A DNA stretch of 64,000 nucleotides from Chamaesiphon sp. (GTDB taxonomy: Bacteria > Cyanobacteriota > Cyanobacteriia > Cyanobacteriales > Chamaesiphonaceae), in assembly GCA_965246715.1 (NCBI GenBank), contig CBDFFH010000002.1, positions 96,001-160,000 on the forward strand, in the 5' to 3' direction. Under the pieces are notes generated by a model that saw only the letters and a program-made list of their open reading frames with translations, was not told where the DNA came from and did no database searches. Within the stretch, counting starts at the first letter, position 1; each line of letters begins with the position of its first letter. Positions 11,152 to 49,696 of the stretch are shown here, in pieces. The translations under genes and the position numbers were made by a program.

Positions 11152-14100
11152 CTAAACAGGTGATAATGTCCGACGTTTGCTAACCATTTGGAAGGTTTCG
11201 ATGATGTCGCCTTCTTTCCAGTCGTTAAACTTGTCTAGACGGATACCGCACTCGAAGCCAGCATTGACTTCTTTAACGTCATCCTTGACCCGTTTGAGCG
11301 AGTCGAGCGTGCCTTCATAGACCAACTGCGTCTTGTTGCGGAGGACGCGGATGCTACAGTTCCGTAATGCCTTACCTGAGAGCACGTAACAACCAGCAAT
11401 GTTGCCACGTCCGGCTTGGAATACCGCCCGAACTTCCACTTGACCCAAGGGTTCTTCAACCTGTTCGGGATCGAGCAGACCTTCCATCGCGCCTTGGATA
11501 TCGCTGAGAAGGGCGTAGATGATGTTGTATTCGCGAACGTCTACACCAGCATCATCGGAGGCAGCGCGAGCGCCACTGGCCAAGGTGGTATTAAAGCCGA
11601 TAATGACGGCACCACTGGCTGCTGCGAGATCCACATCCGTTTCCGTGATTTCACCTGCGGCGGAGAGGAGGACGCGCACCTGGACTTCATTTTGCGGTAA
11701 CTGCCCAAGCGAACCGAGAATTGCTTCGACGGAACCTTGAACGTCGGCTTTGAGAATCAGGTTGAGTTCTTTGAGTTCTCCTTCCTGTGCTTTCGCGGAC
11801 AAGCTGTTGAGCGTGACGCGACGGGAAGCCATCATCTGTTGCAGACGCGATTGACGGCGTTCGGCGGAACGAATATCGGCAATAGCACGAGCTTCTTTTT
11901 CTGGATAGACTTCAAACTCATCACCAGCCTGGGGAACGTCGCTCAAACCGAGGACTTCTACGGCAAAGGATGGGCCAGCGGCTTCGACGCGCGCGAGGCG
12001 GTCGTCTACCATCGCCCGGACTTTACCGAACACATGTCCGGCAACGAGGGTCTCACCGACGCGGAGCGTACCATTTTGAATCAGGAGCGTTGCGACAGGG
12101 CCTTTGGCCTTGTCGAGGTGAGCTTCGATCACCGTACCCCGTGCGGTACGATCGGGATTGGCTTGCAGATCTTCGACATCGGCTACCAACAAGATCATCT
12201 CTAGAAGTGTATCGAGATTTTCTCCTTTGAGGGCGCTCACAGGTACCATAATCGTGTCCCCACCGAGTTCTTCAGCTTGGAGGTTGAAGGCGATTAGTTC
12301 CTGTTGTACGCGAGCGATGTTGGCACCAGGCTTATCGACCTTGTTAATAGCGACGATAATCGGTACTTCGGCTGCTTGAGCGTGACGGATTGCTTCGATC
12401 GTTTGTGGGCGGACACCATCATCAGCCGCGACAACGAGAATCGCAATATCCGTGACCCGCGCCCCACGCGCGCGCATAGCGGTAAAGGCTTCGTGACCGG
12501 GAGTATCCAGGAATACTACCTGTTGCATTTTGCCTTCATGCTCCATGTCTACATGGTATGCCCCGATATGCTGGGTAATCCCCCCAGCTTCACCTTGAGC
12601 GACTTTGGTCGATCGAATGGCATCCAATAGGGTGGTTTTACCGTGATCGACGTGTCCCATAATCGTGACGACGGGCGGACGACGCTGCAACTGGTCGAAG
12701 TCGGCGAGATCGAGCATCTCGGTAACTTTAGTGGCTTCAGCCTGTTCGACCCCAGTAATTACAGCGACACCCATTTCTTCGGCGACCATAGTGGCGGTAC
12801 CGACATCGAGAATCTGGGTGACGCTAATCGCGATCCCTTTAAAGAATAACTGTTTGACGATTTCGGTTTCCGGTACGGTGAGCATTTCTGCTAAATCGCG
12901 AACAGTGATACTCCCCATCAACGTAATCGATTCGGGTTTTTCAACGACATTTTTCTGTTCGCGTTTGTTGCTGCTGCGCTCTTGCTTTTGCTGGTCGCCC
13001 TTCATTACGGGTTTCTTGCGCTGAGCCGGAGCTGCTGCAACTCTTACACCGCCGCCAGTGCCGATCTTCTGTTTTGCTGGACGCGCGATCGATAAACTAA
13101 CGATCGTTTCGGTCTCTGTACCGTTACCATCTTCATCGTCATCATCATCATCTTCATCGATGACGACAGTTTTGACACGCTTGCCTTTAGCTGGGACTTT
13201 CGCCTTCGCGGTTTCGATTTCTTCCTCTTCCTTGCTCCAGCCTTTGCCTTTATTGACTGGCTTGCGGAGTGGCGGACGTTTGAGTTCGAGATCTAGTGGA
13301 GCTGGAGCATTATCATCTTTTTCATCGGTCGCCGCATCTTTGCCCCCAGCACCCGGTCGGGGCGCACCTTGGGGTTTGATTTGGACGATGCGTGTGGGCG
13401 GACGATTTAGTGGCGGTAAGGGTTCGGCCTCGGATTTTGCTACCGGGCGACGCGGCGCACCAGCGCTGGGAGGACGGCTGGGCGCACCAACTGCAGGTTT
13501 GCTCGCAGGTTCGCTCTTGACGATCTGGGATTTGGGGATGGGTTTACTTGGAGCCGCAGCGCGGGGCGTTGGCTCAGCATCATCGCCACTAGCATTCGCT
13601 GGCGCGCGACCGCTATCACTCAAATTTTCGGCATTAATCGGTCGCGCTGGCGGCCCTGACAATGAGGCGCGGGGTGCGGGCGGTTGAACTGGAGCGGATG
13701 CTCTTTGAACGCGAGCTGGTGCTACTGCATCAAAGCTACTACTCGTCTCGGTACGGCGGACGGGCGTGCTATCGCTGACTGGTGTCGGTCGGACGACTTG
13801 GCGGTTGGCACTAGGCGGCTGTGGTGTGGTCGGCTGGCGCAGTGGGGGTTGTTGGGCTGGTAGTGGGGGCTGGGGCATCAATGAGGGCTTAGTCTGGATA
13901 TCTGTTTTGTGTTCGATCCGCAAAATTTGGGTCTTGGGTTCGACTGGACGCTGCGGTGTTTTGGGCGGCTCGGTTTTGACTGCCGCTGGACGCTGCTCCC
14001 CTTTTTTCGGGTGGGGTCTGGCGTGGAGCCTTATTCTGACGATTCGGAAACTTTTCGTTTGCGACGTTGGTAATCTGTTCTGCTTCGGCTTCTGAGATAC

Positions 14101-36016: not shown

Positions 36017-37234
36017 CTATTCAAACGATGAATAATATCTGTCTTCGTTTCCGTCCTCTTGAGATCTTGACTCAACAATATATGAAGCTTCTCTAAGTAG
36101 GTTGATTCCAGCTTGAGAAAGATAGTTTCTAGATACATTCAATAGATTAAGATGCTGTAACTTAGTGCTGCTAGATAATTGAGTTGCATGTTGGTCTCTG
36201 ATTGTGCATGCCTCCAGATCCAAAACAACAAGATTATCTACAATCGACGAATTCAGTATAAGCGACATTAAATCTTCAGGATTTTCATAGCAGCAAATAC
36301 CAAGATATTCTAATCGAGGTACGCTCATATTTTTTATTGGATCTAGAGTGATGTTTTGATTCCAAGCTTGTGTTCCTAACCATACCTGAAAATATTCTAA
36401 ACTAGGTAAACTCATATTGCAGATTTGAGTTAGACTGTCATTATGCATTGAGGCAGTTTCAATAATTAGAGACTTGAGGCTTTCATGTTGTATTTCTCCA
36501 CAAGTTAAGATTGAATCGTAAAAATTACCATAAACTTGTAGAACTTCTAAATCTGGAAATGCTTGCAAGATAGGTTTAATATCGACAATTTGTAATTGAG
36601 ATAGGCGGTATTGATAATAGTCACCTCTAACGTCGCCAATAAATATCGCTTTTACATTCTGCAATAATAATTTTGCTTGGCAAATTGCTTTTATAGCTAC
36701 GCTACATGCCCAATCCCGATCGGGTAATTCACTACCGATCGATATCTGAAATATTAATGCTTGTAATTCACTAATTCGGGGATCTTCAATCAGAGCATAG
36801 AATCGATCGATATCATAATTATCTTCTTCATCTGAAATAGTTAATCTCACTGTGTAAGCAATACTTTCAGGATCGATAATCCCAATACCTGGATAGTACG
36901 TTTCTGCTCTCCAATCATTGAGAGTAGTAAAATATCCGAATGGATCTGCTACTAATAATGTCTCTTTCCCTGATTCACCTGTTTGATTTCGCAGTAATCT
37001 ACGAGCCAATCGGCAAATATCTTCATCATCATCTGTCAATGATTCAATCAATAAATCAACCCCATCAGTTCCATATTGAATTGCATCAGTTAGGGCTTGA
37101 AATCTAGTTTGTAGAGATTCCATTTTTAAGCGTTTTTTGATTCCAGCTAAGCCACCTAAAGTAACAGCATTTATTGGTGTTGGGTTTTGTCCACCTAAAA
37201 CTAGATCTGATGCGTCGGGAATGGATTCTGGCAT
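36017..37234 (-). CDS. Protein with GGQNP/HEAT N-terminal module and LRR (STM4015-like) C-terminus
   Basis: DLVLGGQNPTPINAVTLGGLAGIK; LRR patterns LPSLEYF, LVVLDL, LNLLNVSRNYLS; ends RYYSSFE. Confidence 0.8.
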   Translation of the reverse strand: MPESIPDASDLVLGGQNPTPINAVTLGGLAGIKKRLKMESLQTRFQALTDAIQYGTDGVDLLIESLTDDDEDICRLARRLLRNQTGESGKETLLVADPFGYFTTLNDWRAETYYPGIGIIDPESIAYTVRLTISDEEDNYDIDRFYALIEDPRISELQALIFQISIGSELPDRDWACSVAIKAICQAKLLLQNVKAIFIGDVRGDYYQYRLSQLQIVDIKPILQAFPDLEVLQVYGNFYDSILTCGEIQHESLKSLIIETASMHNDSLTQICNMSLPSLEYFQVWLGTQAWNQNITLDPIKNMSVPRLEYLGICCYENPEDLMSLILNSSIVDNLVVLDLEACTIRDQHATQLSSSTKLQHLNLLNVSRNYLSQAGINLLREASYIVESRSQEDGNEDRYYSSFE

Positions 37235-37322
37235 GGGTATCTATTCGATATGAGGTTGTACTTATTATGCCCGTTGGTGGAGCCTACCGGAGGTAATCGA
37301 TCTTACTATTTCTCCATCGATG

Positions 37323-37438
37323 CAGCCCTCAAATGAATTTGGGGCTAAGAGCAAAAGTCCGTTGAAACGGACTAAGATTAATTCCTAGTTATCTTCAGAT
37401 AACTTTCGCTATGAGCGCGAAATTCTATTTCAGCGCGG
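37323..37438. repeat. Multi-hairpin dispersed repeat (other copies ~3773-3962 and ~57130-57250)
   Basis: GCCCTCAAATGAATTTGGGGCTAA..AAAGTCCGTTGAAACGGACT matches the reverse complement of the other copies. Confidence 0.7.
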
Positions 37439-37460
37439 ATGTCGCTTTCTCTAGTCATAC

Positions 37461-39038
37461 TTAATTCAATTTAGCGATCGATCCCCGTTCAACCAAAACC
37501 CTATTAGTCAATAAATCCGTCACCGTCACCACCAAAATTCGATGTTCCGTCACGGCAAATTCCACCGCAATGCGATCGATTCCTAATTCCCCAGGTGGTT
37601 CTAATCTCGCCAGGCAAACTGAATTGCGATCGCGTTCTAACGAGCGATATTGCGATTGTTTATTCACTGGCATACTACTCATCCTCCCCTGTGCATCATA
37701 AGTAACTTCTGCGGTGCTAATTTGGGCGATTTCCCCGATATCTAGGCGGATTTCGGTTTGTCCTTCGATCGCGACTTGGAGGGTTAATGATTCCACGCGG
37801 GTGCAGGGATATTTAATGCCAGCTTCAAATAGGGGAAAATAATTGTAGGTACGAGTATATGGTTCCCACAGGCGGATGCAATATCCATGTCGGAGATAAT
37901 CTTCTAATCCGGCAATTTGGGTGAGTGCTAATGCTCCATGTGCGACGGCTTCAAAGGGTTTATGGAGCTTTACGCGTTGTCTGCCAAAGTAGGAGATAAA
38001 TAGTTGTTGAATTGCTTGAATCTGACAGCTTCCGCCGACTAATAATATCTGTTCGATATCTACTTTTTGGACACCTTTTCGCAAACCGAGGGTGAGAATT
38101 TCATCGATCGCATCGCGAAATTGTTCGAGTAATTGTCGCTGTTCTAATAGTTCTTCTAATTGCGATCGATCTAAAGTCAGATCGTAGGACATAAACGTAT
38201 CTTCATCCAACCAACTTTCGCGCGCCTCGCGATCGGTAGTCAAGCGAATCTTTAAGCGTTCGGCGATCGCGAGTAGATTTTGCCAACCGACTTCACCGAT
38301 GGTTTCTCGATCGCTATTTAATCGTATTAAATAATCTTCAATAATCCACCTGTCGATATCTTCACCACCCACATATACATCAGTCTTGGCTAATACCTCC
38401 GCCTGGAGTTTGACATCATCCGTACCCAATGGCGACGTTCTCACGAGACTCAAATCGAGCGTTCCGCCCCCAAAATCAGCCACTAACACGATCGAACCCG
38501 GACGTTGCACGGCATAGCCCAAAGCTGCTGCTGTCGATTCATCGACGAACTTAACCGTGGGTAATTTTAACTCAATCGCGACATCTTTAAACCAATCTAA
38601 ATACCGCTCGAACGTACCGACGGGAACTGTAAAAATGACTAACGACGGTTCGATTTTGGCAGCCAACACTTCTTGCCAAATCTGAGTCAGAAATGCTACC
38701 GCCACACTATGGGAATCAAATACCTTATCCTCGATCGTTCGTGGTGGTATTTGAAAATCTGCCGCCAAATCGCGTTTAAACGCCCGAAAAAACCGTTGCG
38801 GTTGTGACAGTCCCAATCGCTGAGATCGCACCTTATCCCCGACGATAATTTCTCGCCCATTACCGACATATACTAAGCTCGGAATGACTGCGATCTCTCC
38901 ACCAGTCGCGATCGTATCGCCCAAACTAAATACCCGCGACAAACTTGGAAACCTCAGCGTTTTTGGTGTCTGGGTATCGGGTTCTAAGATACTGACTACT
39001 GTATTGCTGGTGCCAAAATCGATCGCGATGGCTGTCAT
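37461..39038 (-). CDS. Hsp70-family protein (atypical, no C-terminal lid)
   Basis: IAIDFGTSNT, DESTAAALGY, DFGGGTLD, GGEDID, LVGGS. The ORF-track extension to 39125 is heptamer repeat. Confidence 0.9.
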   Translation of the reverse strand: MTAIAIDFGTSNTVVSILEPDTQTPKTLRFPSLSRVFSLGDTIATGGEIAVIPSLVYVGNGREIIVGDKVRSQRLGLSQPQRFFRAFKRDLAADFQIPPRTIEDKVFDSHSVAVAFLTQIWQEVLAAKIEPSLVIFTVPVGTFERYLDWFKDVAIELKLPTVKFVDESTAAALGYAVQRPGSIVLVADFGGGTLDLSLVRTSPLGTDDVKLQAEVLAKTDVYVGGEDIDRWIIEDYLIRLNSDRETIGEVGWQNLLAIAERLKIRLTTDREARESWLDEDTFMSYDLTLDRSQLEELLEQRQLLEQFRDAIDEILTLGLRKGVQKVDIEQILLVGGSCQIQAIQQLFISYFGRQRVKLHKPFEAVAHGALALTQIAGLEDYLRHGYCIRLWEPYTRTYNYFPLFEAGIKYPCTRVESLTLQVAIEGQTEIRLDIGEIAQISTAEVTYDAQGRMSSMPVNKQSQYRSLERDRNSVCLARLEPPGELGIDRIAVEFAVTEHRILVVTVTDLLTNRVLVERGSIAKLN

Positions 39039-39121
39039 TTGGATTGGGGATTGGGGATTTCGGATTGGGGATTGGGGATTAATATTCGTAGGGTGTGTTA
39101 TCGCGCTAGCGTAACGCACCA

Positions 39122-39772
39122 TCATTTCGCATTCGCAGGTAAAGTACGGCTAACCTTGGCTGGTATAAGAATTCGATCGCCTTTCTGATAGCCGACAAAC
39201 CGCACGTAAACCGATTCACCTGTTTGGATGTCTCCGACATCACTTTGATGGATCTGCGGGTCGTATCGCACCATTTCCCACGGTTTACCGATCGATTGAC
39301 ACTCCCAGAATTTAACGATATTTTCGAGGGATGTTAATAAAGCGACGATATTTCGAGCGGGTAAATCTGGTTGACTTTCTACCATCTTCCGCACGCTGGG
39401 ATATTGAGTCAGGAGTGTTTGAATCTGCTCGAAGCCTCCATCGATCGCATCCGATCGAACTTGCGCTGCTTGTGTTTTCAATTCTTCCCGCAATCGTTGA
39501 CATTGTTGTGTCAATCCGATAATTTCTGACTTCAATCTTGCTTTATCTACTTCACTAGTTTGGAGTTGAAATTTTATCTCTGTTAATTGAGATTGCAATT
39601 TCAGTTCGGTTGCTTGCGATCGCCCTTGTAATTGATTAATTTCTGTGGTTAAGCGTTGTTCTAATGCTACTCGATCGGCTGTCGCAATTTTAAGAGATCT
39701 CAAATAAAAAAATCCTAGTGTCACGATACTCGTGAAAAACCCCACCAATCCACCGATTAATTCTGGCTCCAT
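39122..39772 (-). CDS. Membrane-anchored GrpE-like protein
   Basis: N-terminal TM, coiled coil, C-terminal YDPQIHQ...VRFVGYQKGDRILIPAKVS. Confidence 0.75.
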   Translation of the reverse strand: MEPELIGGLVGFFTSIVTLGFFYLRSLKIATADRVALEQRLTTEINQLQGRSQATELKLQSQLTEIKFQLQTSEVDKARLKSEIIGLTQQCQRLREELKTQAAQVRSDAIDGGFEQIQTLLTQYPSVRKMVESQPDLPARNIVALLTSLENIVKFWECQSIGKPWEMVRYDPQIHQSDVGDIQTGESVYVRFVGYQKGDRILIPAKVSRTLPANAK

Positions 39773-39878
39773 TTTTATACCAATTTAAAATACAAAGGTG
39801 ACAGATGGGTTTGCAGACTCCAGCCTAGCAGAGCTTTCCCAAGCCAAAATCCAAAATCCAAAATCCAAAATGTTATTA

Positions 39879-40097
39879 CTATCCTTGAGTTTCGTTAGCT
39901 TGGGACTGCTCGTTGACGAGGTAATTATCCGCACCATCGTGGTATTCGGGTAATAGTTCCCGCGATTCGACTTTACCCAAGGATGCTTCGATATCTTGGG
40001 TAGCGAGGGTGCAGGTTTCGCCGCTACCATTGATGACAGTTTCGGTGACTTTGCCGTCTTTACCAATGCGGTATTCGATTTTTTGATATTCAGCCAT
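39879..40097 (-). CDS. DUF2997-type small protein
   Basis: IEYRIGKDGKVTETV..G.GETC..AT..IEASLGKV. Confidence 0.75.
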   Translation of the reverse strand: MAEYQKIEYRIGKDGKVTETVINGSGETCTLATQDIEASLGKVESRELLPEYHDGADNYLVNEQSQANETQG

Positions 40098-40127
40098 GAT
40101 TTTTTTTGGATGTTGGAGTTGCCGTCT

Positions 40128-41297
40128 TTACCAAAAAATATTGGTAGAGACATGTGGCATTTTACAGCGAAGTTCTTCAGGTGTGTTGGGATGCTCTGCT
40201 ATTGCTCGTCCTAATTGATGTTTAATTTTTTCGGTATCTCTCCTGAAAAAAACTGGATGGACGATGATTTGCTCCATATAAATAGCCAGTTTTTCTAATA
40301 TATAAGTAGGGGTTTGTGGATTTTTGGCTATTCCTACAGATGCTCCATTAGGTCTTGTGCCACATTCTATTACATCATTCATGATTTCTTCTAATATGTC
40401 TATAGTACTACTTGGATTGGCAGCAATCTGTATACGAACGCCAGGACGACCAAATTCAAGCAAGTATTGTAAAAATTCAATTGGTGTATCAGGATGATTA
40501 GCGATCACTTTCTGAGTATAGTAGTTTCCGTCTATAAATTTAGGATTTTCAAGAATCAATTGTGGCAAAATTGGGTTGCAGATAAAGTCAGTTGGAAACC
40601 AACGACCTAAATTTAATAGTAACTCGATTGGCGAATTGGGGTGTCTAGTAGCATCTCGGTAAATTTCACAAGCAACTTTAACAATTTGGACAATTTCAAT
40701 CGAGATATTTAAGTCAACTAAGTTTTGATAATGCGTTTCTAAATCGACGTGCGCGTAACCAAAAGGATTGAAATCAAAATCGACAACATGACCGTAACGA
40801 AAAGGATTTAAATTAAATTTCTGCTTTAATTTAGACCATTCCTGAATATTTGCGGCTAATATTGCATTCATATTGCTAATATCGCCTAACTCAGACAATA
40901 CATCTGGAGGTGTGTTCGGATTGTTAGCTAAGTTTTTTACAGTTGTCAGATCCTTAGATCGAGAAATTTCTGCGAGCAATTGAGGCTTAGAATCAGTGTC
41001 GTTGGCTAACATTCTAAATAATTCATTTTTCTCGGTTTCTTCCAATAAATTATCCAATAATGTGGATGCTAATTCACGAATTTCCTCAGCAGGATCTGCA
41101 AGGAATTGAATGACTAGATCGAGCGCATCTTTACCATATTGAATGGTATTATCTAAAGCCTGAAGTCTTACTGTTATAGATTCACTCTTTAACCGTTGTT
41201 TTACACCAGCTAAACCACCCAAAACAGCAGCATCGATCGGTGGTGGATTTTGTCCGCCGATAATTAGATCTGATTCGCGAGGAGTGAGTTCTGACAT
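40128..41297 (-). CDS. Protein with GGQNP/HEAT N-terminal module and leucine-rich-variant (A.NP.TP) repeats
   Basis: MSELTPRESDLIIGGQNPPPIDAAVLGGLAGVK; LANNPNTP, IANHPDTP, IAKNPQTP, IAEHPNTP. Start at 41297 avoids overlap with cysC. Confidence 0.8.
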   Translation of the reverse strand: MSELTPRESDLIIGGQNPPPIDAAVLGGLAGVKQRLKSESITVRLQALDNTIQYGKDALDLVIQFLADPAEEIRELASTLLDNLLEETEKNELFRMLANDTDSKPQLLAEISRSKDLTTVKNLANNPNTPPDVLSELGDISNMNAILAANIQEWSKLKQKFNLNPFRYGHVVDFDFNPFGYAHVDLETHYQNLVDLNISIEIVQIVKVACEIYRDATRHPNSPIELLLNLGRWFPTDFICNPILPQLILENPKFIDGNYYTQKVIANHPDTPIEFLQYLLEFGRPGVRIQIAANPSSTIDILEEIMNDVIECGTRPNGASVGIAKNPQTPTYILEKLAIYMEQIIVHPVFFRRDTEKIKHQLGRAIAEHPNTPEELRCKMPHVSTNIFW

Positions 41298-41360
41298 AGG
41301 TATCGACAGTGTGAGATTATTTCTATTATGCCCGTTTGGGCTATGAGGTTCGGTGATGAC

Positions 41361-41891
41361 ATGAACAAGATCCAAAATTCGATCGTCTGGTTCACCGGAT
41401 TGAGCGGCGCGGGAAAAACCACGATTTGTCAACGAGTAGCCGCAGAACTCCAAATGCAGGGGCAAAAAGTCCACTGTCTCGATGGCGATACGCTCCGCCA
41501 AACCCTAACGGCTGACTTGGGATTTAGTCCGATCGATCGAGCCGAAAATATCCGCCGGATCGGGAATATCGCCCAGCAAATGACCCTAGAAGGCGCAATC
41601 GTCCTTGTTGCCGCGATCGCGCCATACCGACAGATGAGAGCGGCATTACGAGCGCAAATTGAGGCATTTGTAGAGGTGTACGTCAATGCCCCCCTCGCAA
41701 TCTGCGAACAACGCGATCCGAAGGGATTGTATCGCCGTGCTAGAGCGGGGGAAATTAAGCAATTTACCGGAATCGACGATCCCTATGAGCCACCATTGAA
41801 TCCTGAAATTACTTGTTATACCGATCGCGAATCGATCGCTCAAAGCACCCAGAAAGTCGTCGATTATTTACAATTTCACCATCGATTGTAG
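41361..41891 (+). CDS. cysC: Adenylyl-sulfate kinase
   Basis: WFTGLSGAGKTT, LDGD, RDPKGLY, FTGIDDPYEPP. Confidence 0.95.
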   Translation: MNKIQNSIVWFTGLSGAGKTTICQRVAAELQMQGQKVHCLDGDTLRQTLTADLGFSPIDRAENIRRIGNIAQQMTLEGAIVLVAAIAPYRQMRAALRAQIEAFVEVYVNAPLAICEQRDPKGLYRRARAGEIKQFTGIDDPYEPPLNPEITCYTDRESIAQSTQKVVDYLQFHHRL

Positions 41892-42772: not shown

Positions 42773-44091
42773 GTGTTAATTAAACAAGATATTTCAGACT
42801 CACATTCTTACCACCAAAGATTAAATATCGTCGATCGAGATCGAACGATTACTAAAGCCGATCGCGACCCAAATTACCTCAATCGCGATCGAGGAGCTAG
42901 TCTCGATTGCACTCATCACAGCCGTAAAAACTCTGGCGTGGCAGTCTTAGCGAGATCGCCGTCTGGCGAGTTATCAAGTTTGGGGAATGGAGTCGCTCGC
43001 CCGCACCTGATGGAGCATCTGCCGTTAAAGAGCCATCACACCAATCTTGGCAGCCTGCAAATAGTTACGCTGGAATGGCAATCGACATTTAAATTGGAGT
43101 ACTGCCCGATCGTGGCAGATTACACGATCTGCTTACCGCTATATGGTTGTAGCGATCGCAACGATCGAGTTAGTCCCGTGTCAACAGCTACTGTGATCGA
43201 TCCCGGTCGATCTTTTGCTGGGATTGCTGGTTCAGCGGGTTCCATCGCGTTCGTAGGGATCGATCGTGAGACGATCGAGAACGAGCTGGCAAAATTACTC
43301 GATCGGGCATTAAAACAACCGTTATTATTTGAGCCAACCATCGATCTCCGTACCGATTTTGGGATGAGTTTGAAGGAACTGATCGAATTTGTGGGACGAC
43401 AGCGCGATCCAGCGTTGAATATTTCATCACCCTTGATGCAGGGAGAGTTAGCAGGGGCTTTATTGGCTTGCTTGCTTAAAGGAAGTTAAAAATAACTATT
43501 CTGATGAAATCCTGTATCACAGTCAGGGGGCTTTTGCCTGCTATGTCAATAAAGCTATTGCTTTCATCGAGTCTCATCTTCAGGACGAGATCGATCTCGC
43601 AGATATTGCTGGGGCAGTGAATATTTCGCCGAGGCTGCTCCAAAAAGCCTTTGCCCAACAATATGACTGTTCGCCCATGCGATTTGTCACCCGATCGCGG
43701 CTGCAGCGAATCCGGCAGGAATTGGAGCGAGCCAGTGGAGATACCCGGATTGTGGATGTGATGATGAATTATGGCATTACCCAAGGTGGGAAGTTTGCCA
43801 AAGAATATCAGCAGTTATTTGGCGAAAAACCCTCAGATACCTTGAAACGCGCCAATCAGATCGATCGAAAACACCCATCCGCTCTGGCAAGAAATCGACG
43901 ATTTTCGCTCCGAGCAGATCGTCGGGGGAGTAGCTCCTGCAGCTCGCCGCAATCTCGATCTCCCGATCGATGGTTTCACGCTACCGCCCTTCTGGTGCGA
44001 TCCTGCGATGTGGGGCAGTTATTTACGAATGATGGGGATACATTTAACCAACCAGTTGCTGCCATCTGCGATCGCTTTGCCGATCGACTAG
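42773..44091 (+). CDS. AraC-family regulator split by two apparent +1 indels (~43482, ~43868), with putative double-Gly C-terminal tail
   Basis: Ligand domain 42773-43483, then VKNNYSDEIL..YVNKAIAFIESHL..SPRLLQKAF..GKFAKEYQQLFGEKPSDTL in the next frame, then HPLWQEIDDFRSEQIVGG.. to TAG 44089-44091 in the third. Confidence 0.75.
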
Positions 44092-44159
44092 CTCGAAATA
44101 AATTGAATATGCTCACATCTTGCATCAGTTTAAATCTACTATTGCTTAGCGTAGATCCA

Positions 44160-44220
44160 GGGTACCCACAAGGGGCACCCCTACAGGTTAATTGTGTAGG
44201 GGTGCCCCTTGTGGGTACCC
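44160..44220. repeat. Inverted pair of GTAG-type REP sequences (REPIN-like)
   Basis: GGGTACCCACAAGGGGCACCCCTACA-N9-TGTAGGGGTGCCCCTTGTGGGTACCC. Confidence 0.8.
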
Positions 44221-44485
44221 TCAGCTTCCAGCTGGTGATCCTGTATTGGTGCCAGAGGTGAATATGCCAAATACGATCCGATCGGTCGATCTGACGTTCG
44301 CGATTGGCATTTCCCCACTCGGTTGCAACTTGTATTATGAACTCATGGAAGCACTCAACTGCTGCGCGATCGAGTTTACTACCCTTCACACCGAGTCCAA
44401 TCTATCCGGGGATGAAGTAGTCAGCAAGAGCTTGCCAGTTGAGGGATCTCCACTTTCAATTCACCATATTTTCTGGAGCAGTAAT

Positions 44486-44758
44486 ATGACTACTAATTTT
44501 TGGATCGAAATTTCTGATGATTCCGCTCAAAATGTCAGTGGTGGTTTCAACAGCGCCTACGGGAATGTTTATTTCAGCGAATACTTTAACGTTTATAAAA
44601 ACGTTTACTCTAACGTAGATCCTCGTGGTCACTTGGCAACTGCGGAGTCCGATGCTAAAGCATATGGCTATGGAACGGTCGCGCAGATCTTTACTTACAC
44701 TGAAACCACTCCTTATAGCTCTTATGCACAAGGCACCAGTATCTCAGCAAGTAAATAA
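44486..44758 (+). CDS. Double-glycine-leader secreted precursor 1 (90 aa)
   Basis: GGAG RBS; MTTNFWIEISDDSAQNVSGG|FNSAYGNVY... Confidence 0.85.
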   Translation: MTTNFWIEISDDSAQNVSGGFNSAYGNVYFSEYFNVYKNVYSNVDPRGHLATAESDAKAYGYGTVAQIFTYTETTPYSSYAQGTSISASK

Positions 44759-44947: not shown

Positions 44948-45307
44948 ATGAAAAGCGTTGATGAGAGCTACCGTAAGGAGCCTTTAGACGGCTTTTTCTT
45001 TGTAGAGATTTCAGATTTTGCTGCTGCCGCGATTGTCGGGGGTGCAGTTGCTGGAGTGAGTGCAACCGCCTATGCGTCTGGTAATTCAAGCTTGGCTTGG
45101 ACGAATACCAGTACTAGTGCAACTCACTTGCCCTGGGGCGGATCGATCGCCCAAGGATACGGAACTGCGGTCGCGATCGGAAATAATCCATCGTCTAATG
45201 TGAATGCTTTCGGCAGCGGAGATATCGTACTGACATACAATTCGACTTACTCTACCAAAAAAAAATCGGTTTCTACCGGATATGTCTTCGCCCTCGACCT
45301 TCCGTGA
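44948..45307 (+). CDS. Double-glycine-leader secreted precursor 2
   Basis: FFFVEISDFAAAAIVGG|AVAGVSATAYASGNSS...; Ser/Thr/Ala/Gly-rich core. Confidence 0.85.
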   Translation: MKSVDESYRKEPLDGFFFVEISDFAAAAIVGGAVAGVSATAYASGNSSLAWTNTSTSATHLPWGGSIAQGYGTAVAIGNNPSSNVNAFGSGDIVLTYNSTYSTKKKSVSTGYVFALDLP

Positions 45308-45335: not shown

Positions 45336-45704
45336 ATGAAAACTACTAAATCGAGCTGTCGAGTAGTGCATCCTGACAGCTTTTGCTCAATTGAAGTCTC
45401 GGACACTGTCGCAGCCACCATCGTTGGGGGCATCGCGATTGCAGTTGGAGCCGAGTCATCTGCTGCTGGGAATTCAGGCTTTGTCTACATCGATCCAACT
45501 ACTACGGCAGAATACCTGTCTTTTGATAGTGCGATCGGCAATGTTAAAGAAGTTGCTGCCACGCTCGAACAGATGGCATCTACTTATCAGACCAGTTACC
45601 AGAGCGGCGACAAGGTGTTTGGGTTTACCAAGAAGTACCATTGCTTTAAACATCAAGCTTGGATGATGGCGAAGGGATTTGGCTTCGCCATCGAGTATCC
45701 TTAA
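45336..45704 (+). CDS. Double-glycine-leader secreted precursor 3 (paralog of 2)
   Basis: FCSIEVSDTVAATIVGG|IAIAVGAESSAAGNSG...SGDKV...GFGFAIEYP. Confidence 0.8.
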   Translation: MKTTKSSCRVVHPDSFCSIEVSDTVAATIVGGIAIAVGAESSAAGNSGFVYIDPTTTAEYLSFDSAIGNVKEVAATLEQMASTYQTSYQSGDKVFGFTKKYHCFKHQAWMMAKGFGFAIEYP

Positions 45705-45797: not shown

Positions 45798-47942
45798 ATG
45801 CCATATTCCTGCACCCTCCAACATAGTGAAGAAGACTGTGGCGCAGCTTGTCTGGCTACCGTTGCGAAGCATTATGGGCGGAACTTCACACTTGCCCGGA
45901 TTCGGGATGCGGTGGGGACGGGATCTCGCGGTACGACCTTACTGGGCTTGCGGCGGGGTGCAGAAGCATTGGGGTTTCATGCGCGCCAAGCCCAGGCGAC
46001 TCTAGACGCGATCGAGCATTTAAATCGAGCACCTTTACCTTTAGTCATTCATTGGCAGGGCAATCACTGGGTCGTACTCTACCGCCAGCGGGGGAAGAAA
46101 TATATTATCGCCGATCCGGCAGTCGGCATTCGGTATTTAACCAAACAAGAACTACTAGATGGGTGGTCGAATGGTTTGATGCTGGTGTTGCAGCCCGACG
46201 AGGAGCGATTTTACGAACAGCCCAATGATAAAGTTGGCGGATTCGGGCGATTTCTCCGCCGAGTTTTTCCGTATCGGTGGATTCTGCTCCAAGCGATCGT
46301 TATTAACATCGCGATCGGCATCTTGGCGCTGGCGCTACCGATTCTGATGCAGATCCTGACCGATGATGTGCTCGTCAGGGGGGATTTACAGCTACTGACG
46401 ACGGTAGCGATCGCGGTAATTACGATGAACTTGTTTCGGAGCGCGATCGGGTTGATTCAGTCCCATTTAGTGGGACATTTCGGTCAGCGATTGCAATTGG
46501 GGCTGACTCTCGACTATGGTTTCAACCTGCTGCGCCTGCCTTTATCCTATTTCGACGCTCACCGCAGTGGCGAAGTCATCAGTCGGTTGGGGGATGTCCG
46601 CACCGTCAATAATTTAGTCGGGCAGATCGTCCTCGGTTTGCCCAGTCAGTTTTTTATTGCGATCGTCTCGCTGGTGTTGATGCTCCTCTACACCTGGCAA
46701 CTCAGCCTCGCGGCGATCGCGGCTTTTGTCCTCCTCACACTAGTCAACCTCTTATTTCTCCCCGCACTGCGCCAAAAAACTCGCAGCCTGCTCGTCGAAG
46801 GGACGGAAAATCAAGGATTTTTAGTTGAAACCTTCCGCAGCGCCTTAGTCCTCAAAACGACGCAAGCCACACCCCAAGTTTGGGATGAGTATCAGTTGAA
46901 TTTTGGGCGACTGGCAAATCTGAGTTGGGGCGCGATGAAACTGGGCATGTATAGCTCTACGCTGACAGGGATTATCTCTAACTTAACCACGATCGGCTTA
47001 CTCTGGTTTGGGAGTTATCTAGTCATCGATCGCACCCTCTCGATCGGTCAGTTAATCTCATTTAATGGGATGAGTAGTAACTTTCTCGGATTTCTGAGTG
47101 CGGTTGTCGGTTTGACCGATGAATTTATTACCGCCCAGATTGTGATTCAACGGCTCTCGGAAGTGCTCGATGCCCAGCCAGAGGAAGCTTATACTACGTC
47201 TAAGCCGTGGGCTGATATTCCCCAAGATGCCAATATTTCTTGCCTGCAAGTTAATTTTCACCATGCGGGACGAGTCACGCTGCTAAAGGATTTCAACCTA
47301 ACTATTCCCGGCGGGAAAGTTATCGCCCTGATCGGCGAATCTGGCTGCGGAAAGAGTACGCTTGCCAAACTCATTGCTGGATTGTACCCACTTCAGTCGG
47401 GGAATATCCGCTACGGGGTATACAACCAGCAAGATTTAGCCCTAGAATGCTTGCGCCAACAAGTAGTATTAGTCGTCCAGGATGCCCAATTTTGGAGCCG
47501 ATCGATTATCGATAATTTCCGGCTTGCCTATCCCAATCTCTCGTTCGAGCGGATCGTGCGCGCTTGTCAAATTGCTGGAGCGGATGAGTTTATTAGCGAA
47601 TTACCGGATAAGTATCAGACCGTATTGGGCGAATTTGGCGCAAACCTGTCCGGCGGCCAAAAACAACGGTTGGCACTCGCCCGTGCCTTAGTCACTGCTC
47701 CATCCGTACTGATCTTAGATGAATCCACTGGCGCACTCGATCCAACGACTGAAACTGAGGTGTTGGAGCGAGTGCTGGCATCCCGCAAACAGCGCACCAC
47801 GATCCTAATTAGCCATCGTCCCCGCGTTGTGCTCCGTGCCGATCTGGTCGTCTATCTCGATCGCGGTGAGCTGAAACTTATGGGTACTCCGAGTGACTTA
47901 TTAAGCATTGCTGGCGCGCATCAAAATTTTTTGAAGCCCTAA
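45798..47942 (+). CDS. C39 peptidase-containing ABC transporter (PCAT)
   Basis: QHSEEDCGAACL, HWQGNHWVV, IADP, TM domain, GESGCGKS, LSGGQKQR. Confidence 0.95.
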   Translation: MPYSCTLQHSEEDCGAACLATVAKHYGRNFTLARIRDAVGTGSRGTTLLGLRRGAEALGFHARQAQATLDAIEHLNRAPLPLVIHWQGNHWVVLYRQRGKKYIIADPAVGIRYLTKQELLDGWSNGLMLVLQPDEERFYEQPNDKVGGFGRFLRRVFPYRWILLQAIVINIAIGILALALPILMQILTDDVLVRGDLQLLTTVAIAVITMNLFRSAIGLIQSHLVGHFGQRLQLGLTLDYGFNLLRLPLSYFDAHRSGEVISRLGDVRTVNNLVGQIVLGLPSQFFIAIVSLVLMLLYTWQLSLAAIAAFVLLTLVNLLFLPALRQKTRSLLVEGTENQGFLVETFRSALVLKTTQATPQVWDEYQLNFGRLANLSWGAMKLGMYSSTLTGIISNLTTIGLLWFGSYLVIDRTLSIGQLISFNGMSSNFLGFLSAVVGLTDEFITAQIVIQRLSEVLDAQPEEAYTTSKPWADIPQDANISCLQVNFHHAGRVTLLKDFNLTIPGGKVIALIGESGCGKSTLAKLIAGLYPLQSGNIRYGVYNQQDLALECLRQQVVLVVQDAQFWSRSIIDNFRLAYPNLSFERIVRACQIAGADEFISELPDKYQTVLGEFGANLSGGQKQRLALARALVTAPSVLILDESTGALDPTTETEVLERVLASRKQRTTILISHRPRVVLRADLVVYLDRGELKLMGTPSDLLSIAGAHQNFLKP

Positions 47943-47992: not shown

Positions 47993-49696
47993 ATGAGCAA
48001 CCGTAACCTCCTCAATGGCAAAAGCGATCGTGATTTTAGCGACGGCAAAATGTTTACGACCAACTTCTCCACCACGAGTGGTTATATCCGCTCCCAATTT
48101 AAGGAGAGTGCCTTAAATCCGAGTGATACTTCGATAACTCTACCCGAACCGAGTGGTTCTCTAGTCGCGGCACCAGAACCGAGCGGTGCGTTAGTTCCGT
48201 ATCAGCCTAATGTCGGGGATCTCTGTCGCCAAACTACACCAGATGATTATTTGCCCTCGATCGGTCGATTTCTACCGATTTGCGGCGCAGGCATGGTGGG
48301 GTTATTTTGCATGGCGATCGGTCTGAGTTCGATTTTAAAATATAAGACTACCGTTCAAGCTTCTGCAACGATTCGGCCCAACGGCGAACTGCGGATCGTT
48401 CAATCCGCGATCGACGGTTCGGTAGTGAGTATCCGCGTGCGGGACAATCAAGTCGTCAAACCGGGAGAGATCGTCGCCACTGTCAGAGATTTACGGCTCG
48501 AAAGTAAATTACAAACCAAGCGCGCTCAATTAATCGGCGACATTCACAAAGGTAAGCAACAGATCGGTAAAATTGACGCTCAAATTCTCGCGCTCCAGCA
48601 TCAAAGTATGGGCGAACTGGAGCAAACAGATCGATCGATTGCTGGGATCGAATCCGAACGCAGTCGTGCGGAGCGCGACTATCGCGACAAACAACGCATC
48701 AGTCGCGCCGAAGTTACGGAAGCTACCGCCAATATCGAAACTGCCAAGAAAGATAAACAAGCCGCCGAGATGGAATTACTCGTCGCCAATGCTAATTTAA
48801 AATCGATTCAAGCCGCTCATCAAGCTGCGGTGGCCAAACGCGATCGTTATCAAGACGCAGGTACGGCAGGGGCGATTCCCCAAAATCAAGTGGAAGAAGC
48901 CCAACTCGCTGCCGAACAACAAGCCCAAGCCATTGCTGCCCAACAAGCGACGATTGCCAAGCAAACCCAAACCATCGCCCGCTTGCACCAAATCATCGTC
49001 TCAGCACAAGCTAGAGCGACCCGGATTCAGGTTGCCCTCGATCCCAGTCATGCCGAAGTCGAACAAATCGCCCATAAAATCGAGCGCGAACGGGCAAATA
49101 GCAAAACAACAATCGCCCGGTTCCAGCAAGAGCGCCAAAAACTGCTCCAACAACGGGTCGAGATCGCTAATCAAATTGTTACTACCAAGCGCGAAATCGC
49201 CCAAATTGCTACCGATCTCCAGCCTACCGCGATCGTTGCGCCGATCGCTGGCACGATCCAGGACTTGACACTGCGAAATAATCATCAGGTCGTACATTCC
49301 GGCGATAGTCTGGCGCGAATTTTGCCTACTGGTACGGCAATGCAAATTAAGGCTTATGTTGCCCTTGCGGATATTGGCAAGGTAAATATCGGGCAAACGG
49401 TGCAAATGCGTGTATCCGCCTGTCCGTATACCGAAAATGGCGTGTTGGCAGGGAAAGTAACTGAGGTCTCTGCTGATGCCAAGTCGAGCGATAAAACTGC
49501 TGCTAGCGCGCAGCAATTACCATCAGCAGCCAATAGCTATGCGGTCACGATCGAACCAGCTACCGCTAGTATCGGTACTGGTAAAAGTAAATGCCACATG
49601 CGCTCGGGCATGGAAGGTCGAGTGGATATTATTTCTAAGGAAGAAACCATCCTCCAATTCATGCTGCAAAAGGCGCGGTTATTAGTCAATTCTTAA
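47993..49696 (+). CDS. HlyD-family membrane fusion protein
   Basis: TM, IVQSAIDGSV, long coiled coil, APIAGTI, SGMEGRVDII. Confidence 0.92.
   Translation: MSNRNLLNGKSDRDFSDGKMFTTNFSTTSGYIRSQFKESALNPSDTSITLPEPSGSLVAAPEPSGALVPYQPNVGDLCRQTTPDDYLPSIGRFLPICGAGMVGLFCMAIGLSSILKYKTTVQASATIRPNGELRIVQSAIDGSVVSIRVRDNQVVKPGEIVATVRDLRLESKLQTKRAQLIGDIHKGKQQIGKIDAQILALQHQSMGELEQTDRSIAGIESERSRAERDYRDKQRISRAEVTEATANIETAKKDKQAAEMELLVANANLKSIQAAHQAAVAKRDRYQDAGTAGAIPQNQVEEAQLAAEQQAQAIAAQQATIAKQTQTIARLHQIIVSAQARATRIQVALDPSHAEVEQIAHKIERERANSKTTIARFQQERQKLLQQRVEIANQIVTTKREIAQIATDLQPTAIVAPIAGTIQDLTLRNNHQVVHSGDSLARILPTGTAMQIKAYVALADIGKVNIGQTVQMRVSACPYTENGVLAGKVTEVSADAKSSDKTAASAQQLPSAANSYAVTIEPATASIGTGKSKCHMRSGMEGRVDIISKEETILQFMLQKARLLVNS

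Follow-up and report, generated by a model that had tools for sequence, protein, structure and literature searches.

An AraC-family regulator of Chamaesiphon sp. carries, as a real, selected and apparently undescribed fusion, a double-glycine leader motif shortly behind its DNA-binding domain. We propose, with a probability of roughly 55%, that the neighbouring C39-ABC exporter (PCAT) binds this motif and cuts off the tail behind it, feeding back on the probable regulator of its own operon. The locus (Table 1) lies in the window, that is, the whole stretch of 64,000 nucleotides analysed. A literature search, with subscription journals mostly outside its coverage, found no description of a regulator-leader fusion.

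Table 1. Features of the regulator-exporter locus, in window coordinates
Feature	Position	Strand	Basis
AraC regulator, N-terminal and ligand-binding part (PF14525)	42773..43482	+	Domain match; single ORF with the following parts in G011
Frameshift 1: surplus base, probable assembly error	43483..43483	+	Not in G011, nor in the X1, X2 and X3 contigs
AraC double helix-turn-helix (HTH, PF12833) and start of linker	43484..43873	+	Domain match; dN/dS 0.06
Frameshift 2: surplus base in a C run, probable assembly error	43874..43876	+	X1 record 7; G011 alignment
Regulator's double-glycine leader motif (-15 to -1)	43885..43929	+	Homologues, PSSM, dN/dS, complex model
Variable 53-aa tail after GG (43930-44088) and stop codon	43930..44091	+	Homologue tails, dN/dS
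155-bp multicopy insertion	44104..44267	.	9-bp direct repeats at ends; 27-bp internal inverted repeat
Conserved bipartite promoter-like element, candidate AraC operator/promoter of the precursor-PCAT-HlyD operon	44263..44338	+	Conservation; AraC binding inferred
Double-glycine precursor 1	44486..44758	+	ORF; weak CTB-family match, below cut-off
Double-glycine precursor 2	44948..45307	+	ORF; leader matrix
Double-glycine precursor 3, paralogue of precursor 2	45336..45704	+	ORF; leader matrix
PCAT: C39 peptidase, ABC membrane and ATPase domains	45801..47942	+	Catalytic Gln/Cys/His/Asp kept
HlyD-type membrane fusion protein	47993..49696	+	Domain match

Reading frame of the regulator gene

In this assembly the AraC gene is spread over three frames (PF14525 at 42773-43486, PF12833 at 43488-43868). 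The frame of 43846-44091, preceded by a stop at 43843, has no start before the motif, and three leaders lie downstream, all as an earlier note on this DNA had described. The same note had ascribed the break to an extra base in the A run at 43868-43871; this was mistaken, the surplus base being a C in the run 43874-43876 according to the DNA alignment to G011, a genome of the same genus that is 89% identical over the stretch and in which a single 441-aa ORF encodes the regulator together with the motif and a 58-aa tail. Upstream of the HTH the gene is broken again, by a second surplus base at 43483 that G011 does not have. The read check that the note had called for at both break sites was made on contigs and came out in its favour: those of the runs X1, X2 and X3 each lack one base at both sites (at the downstream one, within 43874-43877). 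Over 43808-44175, the contig of X1 record 7 (depth 3) differs by no substitution and a single gap and is without the surplus C; it also has the strain's 155-bp insertion element. Across 25 genes syntenic with G011 (35 kb) we counted four frame-breaking indels, all of a single base in short homopolymer runs, and two of the four fall in the AraC gene. Consensus indel errors are probably present in this assembly, and for the AraC frameshifts assembly error is likelier than strain-level decay. The other two indels, at window positions 14002 and 15502, break genes that are intact in G011.

Conservation and selection of the motif

The regulator matches PF12833 with 57 bits (cut-off 33.6) and PF14525 with 40 bits (cut-off 27), and structure comparison matches its fold to AraC DNA-binding domains. 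The motif, W-x-x-[IL]-D-[DE]-x-x-[SA]-x-x-[VIL]-x-G-G, lies about 13 residues past the HTH and shares its register with the leaders of the adjacent precursors; it sits internally (residues 369-383) rather than forming the N-terminal end of a small precursor that has a bioactive core. A profile built from 13 intact proteins of the genus, in which the motif made up only 15 of 424 positions, retrieved 149 homologues, 120 of them listed and four of these 120 named Chamaesiphon by their sources. The motif was found in 117 of the 120 listed homologues (116 of the 118 parsed, plus one unparsed protein that was inspected), which upholds the earlier proposal that the segment is the C-terminus of AraC. 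The remaining three end inside the motif (one) or just past the HTH (two). From HTH to motif the distance is 9-30 residues (median 13) in the 116 parsed proteins.

Past the HTH, complete invariance among the 86 aligned proteins (36-91% identity) is limited to W-15, G-2 and G-1. All 116 motifs counted have GG at -2/-1 and I or L at -12, and all but one have V, I, L or F at -4 (115/116); position -7 is Ser in 90, Ala in 25 and Gly in one, hence S/A in 115/116. The precursors beside these cyanobacterial PCATs carry Gln, Ala or Ser at -7, and the local ones have small residues there. Motif codons vary synonymously, and the pooled dN/dS of five close pairs was 0.07 for the motif and 0.06 for the HTH, rising to 0.29 in the N-terminal part and 0.47 in the tail. 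Judged from sequence, the motif is under constraint like that of the HTH. In a six-frame translation of the genome (8.7 million residues) the strict motif occurs once, here. A PSSM trained on only 27 precursor leaders of the genus gives the regulator motif 32.7 bits, and a matrix trained on leaders of other cyanobacteria gives it 15.0 bits; with the genus PSSM, six sites exceed 12 bits in 2.17 million residues of ORFs of at least 100 aa, five of them precursor leaders. On these grounds we take the AraC-leader fusion to be real. The invariant Trp and the Asp-Asp pair are conserved more highly in the regulators than in the precursors, a possible sign of a further role unrelated to C39.

The tail after the glycines

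Every motif is followed by a tail of at least five residues. The earlier note had read this segment as a 53-aa core that might be released as a signal peptide; comparison does not support a conserved core or signal: the tails measure 5-110 aa (median 32), are retained within subclades with no motif shared across them, and are low in D/E, as in read-through. In four loci (L018, L025, L027 and L100) the tail even codes over the downstream promoter element. Some constraint is visible (Fisher p 0.0007, a value that includes alignment bias). By sequence, then, there is little about the tails to suggest a conserved core peptide. An amphipathic membrane anchor was considered and rejected, since 43 non-redundant tails of 113 gave a mean z of 0.12 against shuffles, with four above 1.64. 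The CTB-family bacteriocin model NF038167 has no match in the regulator tail and scores about 16 bits with precursor 1, below its cut-off of 32.

The exporter in the genus and beyond

Of 26 other genomes of the genus, 16 contain the regulator clade; none of 12 genomes of the sister genus does. PCAT lies on the same stretch as the regulator in 12 of 13 intact loci, and across 63 C39 domains Q7, C13 and H89 are invariant and D105 nearly so. A C39 match was found in 14 of the 16 genomes, and the two without one have damaged regulators. In G013 the locus is decayed (L129:6310-8933): the HTH is deleted in frame and the leader motif kept, while precursors and C39 are deleted. In G425, a 77% complete genome whose contig ends near the gene, the regulator has a stop after the HTH and no motif. 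In G016 the motif is kept though AraC and PCAT are on different contigs, and at L028:2146-3462, on a short contig of a 61% complete genome, the regulator stands directly 5' of PCAT with no precursor between. Identities of AraC and cognate C39 showed no significant co-variation over 12 loci (Mantel rho 0.15, p 0.13). The genus also has other PCAT loci. A second one in G000 (C37:61552-69955) has no AraC; it combines two precursors whose leaders are of another type with a short adaptor gene and a divergent 1242-aa gene that by eye resembles a NACHT/WD40-type regulator. Related ORFs of about 300 aa (L133:2973-3848 and L134:1816-2733) stand divergently before single precursors at further loci and are possibly another regulator type.

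The search that the earlier note had proposed, for AraC proteins with a GG tail beside a PCAT, was positive within the genus and negative in the other cyanobacteria covered. Among 1.84 billion representatives, the motif was present in 15 of 16 strong matches and in none of 110 weaker AraC matches. The same architecture was sought elsewhere in the phylum and rejected: profile matches at 1e-25 occurred in 4 of 400 genomes, each time in an ORF that stops behind the HTH. At 60 PCAT loci from cyanobacteria outside the genus, chosen among the matches listed, no regulator gene contained an internal leader; searches outside the genus would miss other regulator families with a diverged leader away from a PCAT. 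The two internal leader scores of at least 9 at these 60 loci fall in what we take to be DnaJ-like and transhydrogenase-like proteins. The fusion is, on these sequence searches, apparently restricted to one genus so far. A distinct, tail-less AraC subfamily (ORFs of about 300 aa) precedes arrays of GG precursors at four of the 60 loci, L051, L056, L057 and L059. These arrays belong to two other families, and their precursor leaders resemble the fused motif; this may possibly be the pre-fusion arrangement.

The promoter-like element

A promoter-like element, composed of two boxes about 33 bp apart and then a TAnnnT box, lies 5' of the first precursor; its score exceeds the shuffled maximum in 18 of the 19 regions examined, which span subclades with protein identities of about 40%. 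Its position is that where an AraC-type activator site near -35 would stand. In G016 it remains with the precursors, not with the displaced AraC. The AraC regulator probably drives the precursor-PCAT-HlyD operon, and this element is its candidate binding site. In a scan of the own genome for a regulon with a fixed-width promoter matrix, the window's own site fell outside the top eight, because the box spacing shifts by 1-2 bases. Just 5' of the element sits the palindromic 155-bp insertion, with direct repeats at 44104-44112 and 44259-44267; it has many copies across the genus and is missing in G011 and X2. Elsewhere in the window (36017-41501) there is an Hsp70-like gene with a weakly GrpE-like neighbour, flanked by two repeat proteins that have a common HEAT-like N-terminal segment.

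Structure models

In the AF2 model, residues 70-360 are well folded, while motif and tail are unpacked, with a pLDDT of about 40-67 after residue 360. A complex model of the G011 C39 domain with regulator residues 358-392 scored 0.66, against 0.01 for the best control; 116 of 157 solved pairs attain the mark for this score, as do 2 of 215 mismatched ones. Runs share at least 86% of contacts, with a partner pLDDT of at least 59. The modelled interface joins regulator residues -18 to +2 to C39 residues 10-14 and 87-90, including Cys13 and His89, and holds -12, -7, -4 and the GG next to the catalytic Cys and His. The score may reflect memory of solved C39-leader complexes; because like complexes are solved, the model shows likeness rather than binding. 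For LahT (PMC6363468), the final 13 residues of the leader are enough and variation in the P' residues is accepted; positions -4, -7 and -12 pack in the C39 groove, and Leu is needed at -7.

Discussion

In the mechanism we favour, PCAT would bind the leader motif in its C39 groove with the GG at the catalytic Cys, as the docking predicts. Were the usual PCAT chemistry to apply, the part before the GG would stay in the cytosol and the part after it would be released towards the channel; the 380-residue regulator would in effect be an oversized leader and the tail disposable cargo. The precursors would compete for the same groove, so that the ratio of cut to uncut regulator would report free exporter capacity. 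As to the sign, we lean slightly towards clipping activating or stabilising the regulator, a positive feedback, and this is the least supported step of the scheme. The fusion likely arose when the stop between the AraC gene and the first precursor was lost, the leader being kept while the core drifted. We put even odds on the fuller picture of a one-component export sensor, in which a transcription factor is the substrate of the exporter that it controls and is switched by C39, without kinase, pheromone receptor or anti-activator. Several observations speak against cutting by the exporter: three of the 120 homologues lack the motif, the tail is not wholly neutral, -7 is Ser/Ala instead of LahT's Leu, though local precursors too are small there, AraC and C39 do not co-vary significantly, and the motif is kept in the displaced G016 copy.

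The last two of these would suit a motif that is the relic of a fused precursor and now serves inside the regulator, in auto-inhibition, dimerisation or with another partner, never meeting the exporter, and so would the very high conservation of W and D-D; but the sites under conservation, the GG among them, coincide exactly with those that C39 recognises, and AF2 (86 sequences) leaves the motif unpacked on the AraC fold, and we consider this reading doubtful. Slightly better placed, though still unlikely, is a tether or decoy without functional cleavage, where an idle exporter holds the regulator at the membrane via the leader groove until precursors displace it. The motif conservation and docking fit it equally, and tail sequence and length are free, but both glycines are invariant, at least five tail residues are always present and C39 domains tolerate diverse P' residues (PMC6363468), so that a bound motif should be cut.

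The tail might instead be the product, a strain-specific exported signal or bacteriocin linked one-to-one with the regulator. Its geometry is right for export, tails are kept within subclades and their dN/dS indicates some purifying selection; yet the range of lengths, the lack of a motif common to subclades, the read-through-like paucity of D/E, the four tails that code over the promoter element and the fact that no sensor kinase was seen in these loci make it improbable. We give still less credence to a small precursor nested in the gene and started at an internal in-frame codon, with the AraC fusion incidental: a nearly invariant Met-Met pair does stand about 40 codons before the motif, but it is itself within the HTH and has no common ribosome-binding sequence before it, a linker Met occurs in 3 of 116 proteins, and of 13 loci three have start-like codons in the linker, not at matching positions. 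Chance, or a separate precursor that has decayed and come to lie beside AraC through a frameshift, would fit the motif being out of frame with AraC in this assembly, but with the motif in frame in the 117 homologues, in G011 and in the read contigs this is refuted for the family and its probability is negligible.

Cleavage of the regulator by the exporter, our preferred reading, would combine traits of several known systems. Like PCAT/AMS double-glycine precursors, such as LahT and PCAT1 substrates (PMC6363468, PMC10885120), the regulator has the register -12, -7, -4 and GG, and it has a cognate C39-ABC and HlyD next door, with docking modelled here; unlike them, it holds the leader within a folded DNA-binding protein, with no conserved core after it. 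NHLP and Nif11/N11P precursors also have protein-derived leader extensions that C39 exporters accept (PMC3140520, PMC10885120), but their leaders are small and not known as transcription regulators, whereas here the protein is an intact, strongly selected AraC. ExsA/ExsE (PMC13251382) is likewise an AraC-family activator coupled to the activity of the secretion machine that it controls, a coupling that we infer here, but it works with four separate proteins and partner switching on ExsE export, with no proteolysis, C39 or fused signal; our loci hold only regulator, precursors, PCAT and HlyD, and a separate anti-activator, anti-anti-activator and secreted regulator of the ExsA type are absent from them. 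AraC_binding_2 + HTH_18 regulators (AndR, EutR, FeaR-like) share the domain layout and fold, but the regulator scores far below the curated equivalog cut-offs (at best 96-134 bits, against 350 for AndR), and none of the 110 other AraC matches has a leader-like motif. For HetC of Nostoc PCC 7120, the authors speculate (PMC10986499) that a cleaved N-terminal piece of the substrate stays inside the cell and acts on a transcriptional regulator; there the model is hypothetical, the substrate unknown and the regulator separate, whereas here the N-terminal piece would be the regulator. By analogy, the regulator would work like secretion-coupled AraC control and like long-leader PCAT substrates; by architecture it is a member of neither.

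In the usual view, PCAT substrates are small precursors with an N-terminal leader, and regulation runs via exported pheromones and two-component systems. Although its breadth is limited to one genus so far, a selected internal C39 site in a full-size transcription factor would, if true, widen the substrate concept to cytosolic regulatory proteolysis and give a Gram-negative host a way for the exporter to feed back directly on a promoter. It would also hint at where to seek the substrates of orphan PCATs such as HetC, and the 15 residues of the motif would constitute a portable switch.
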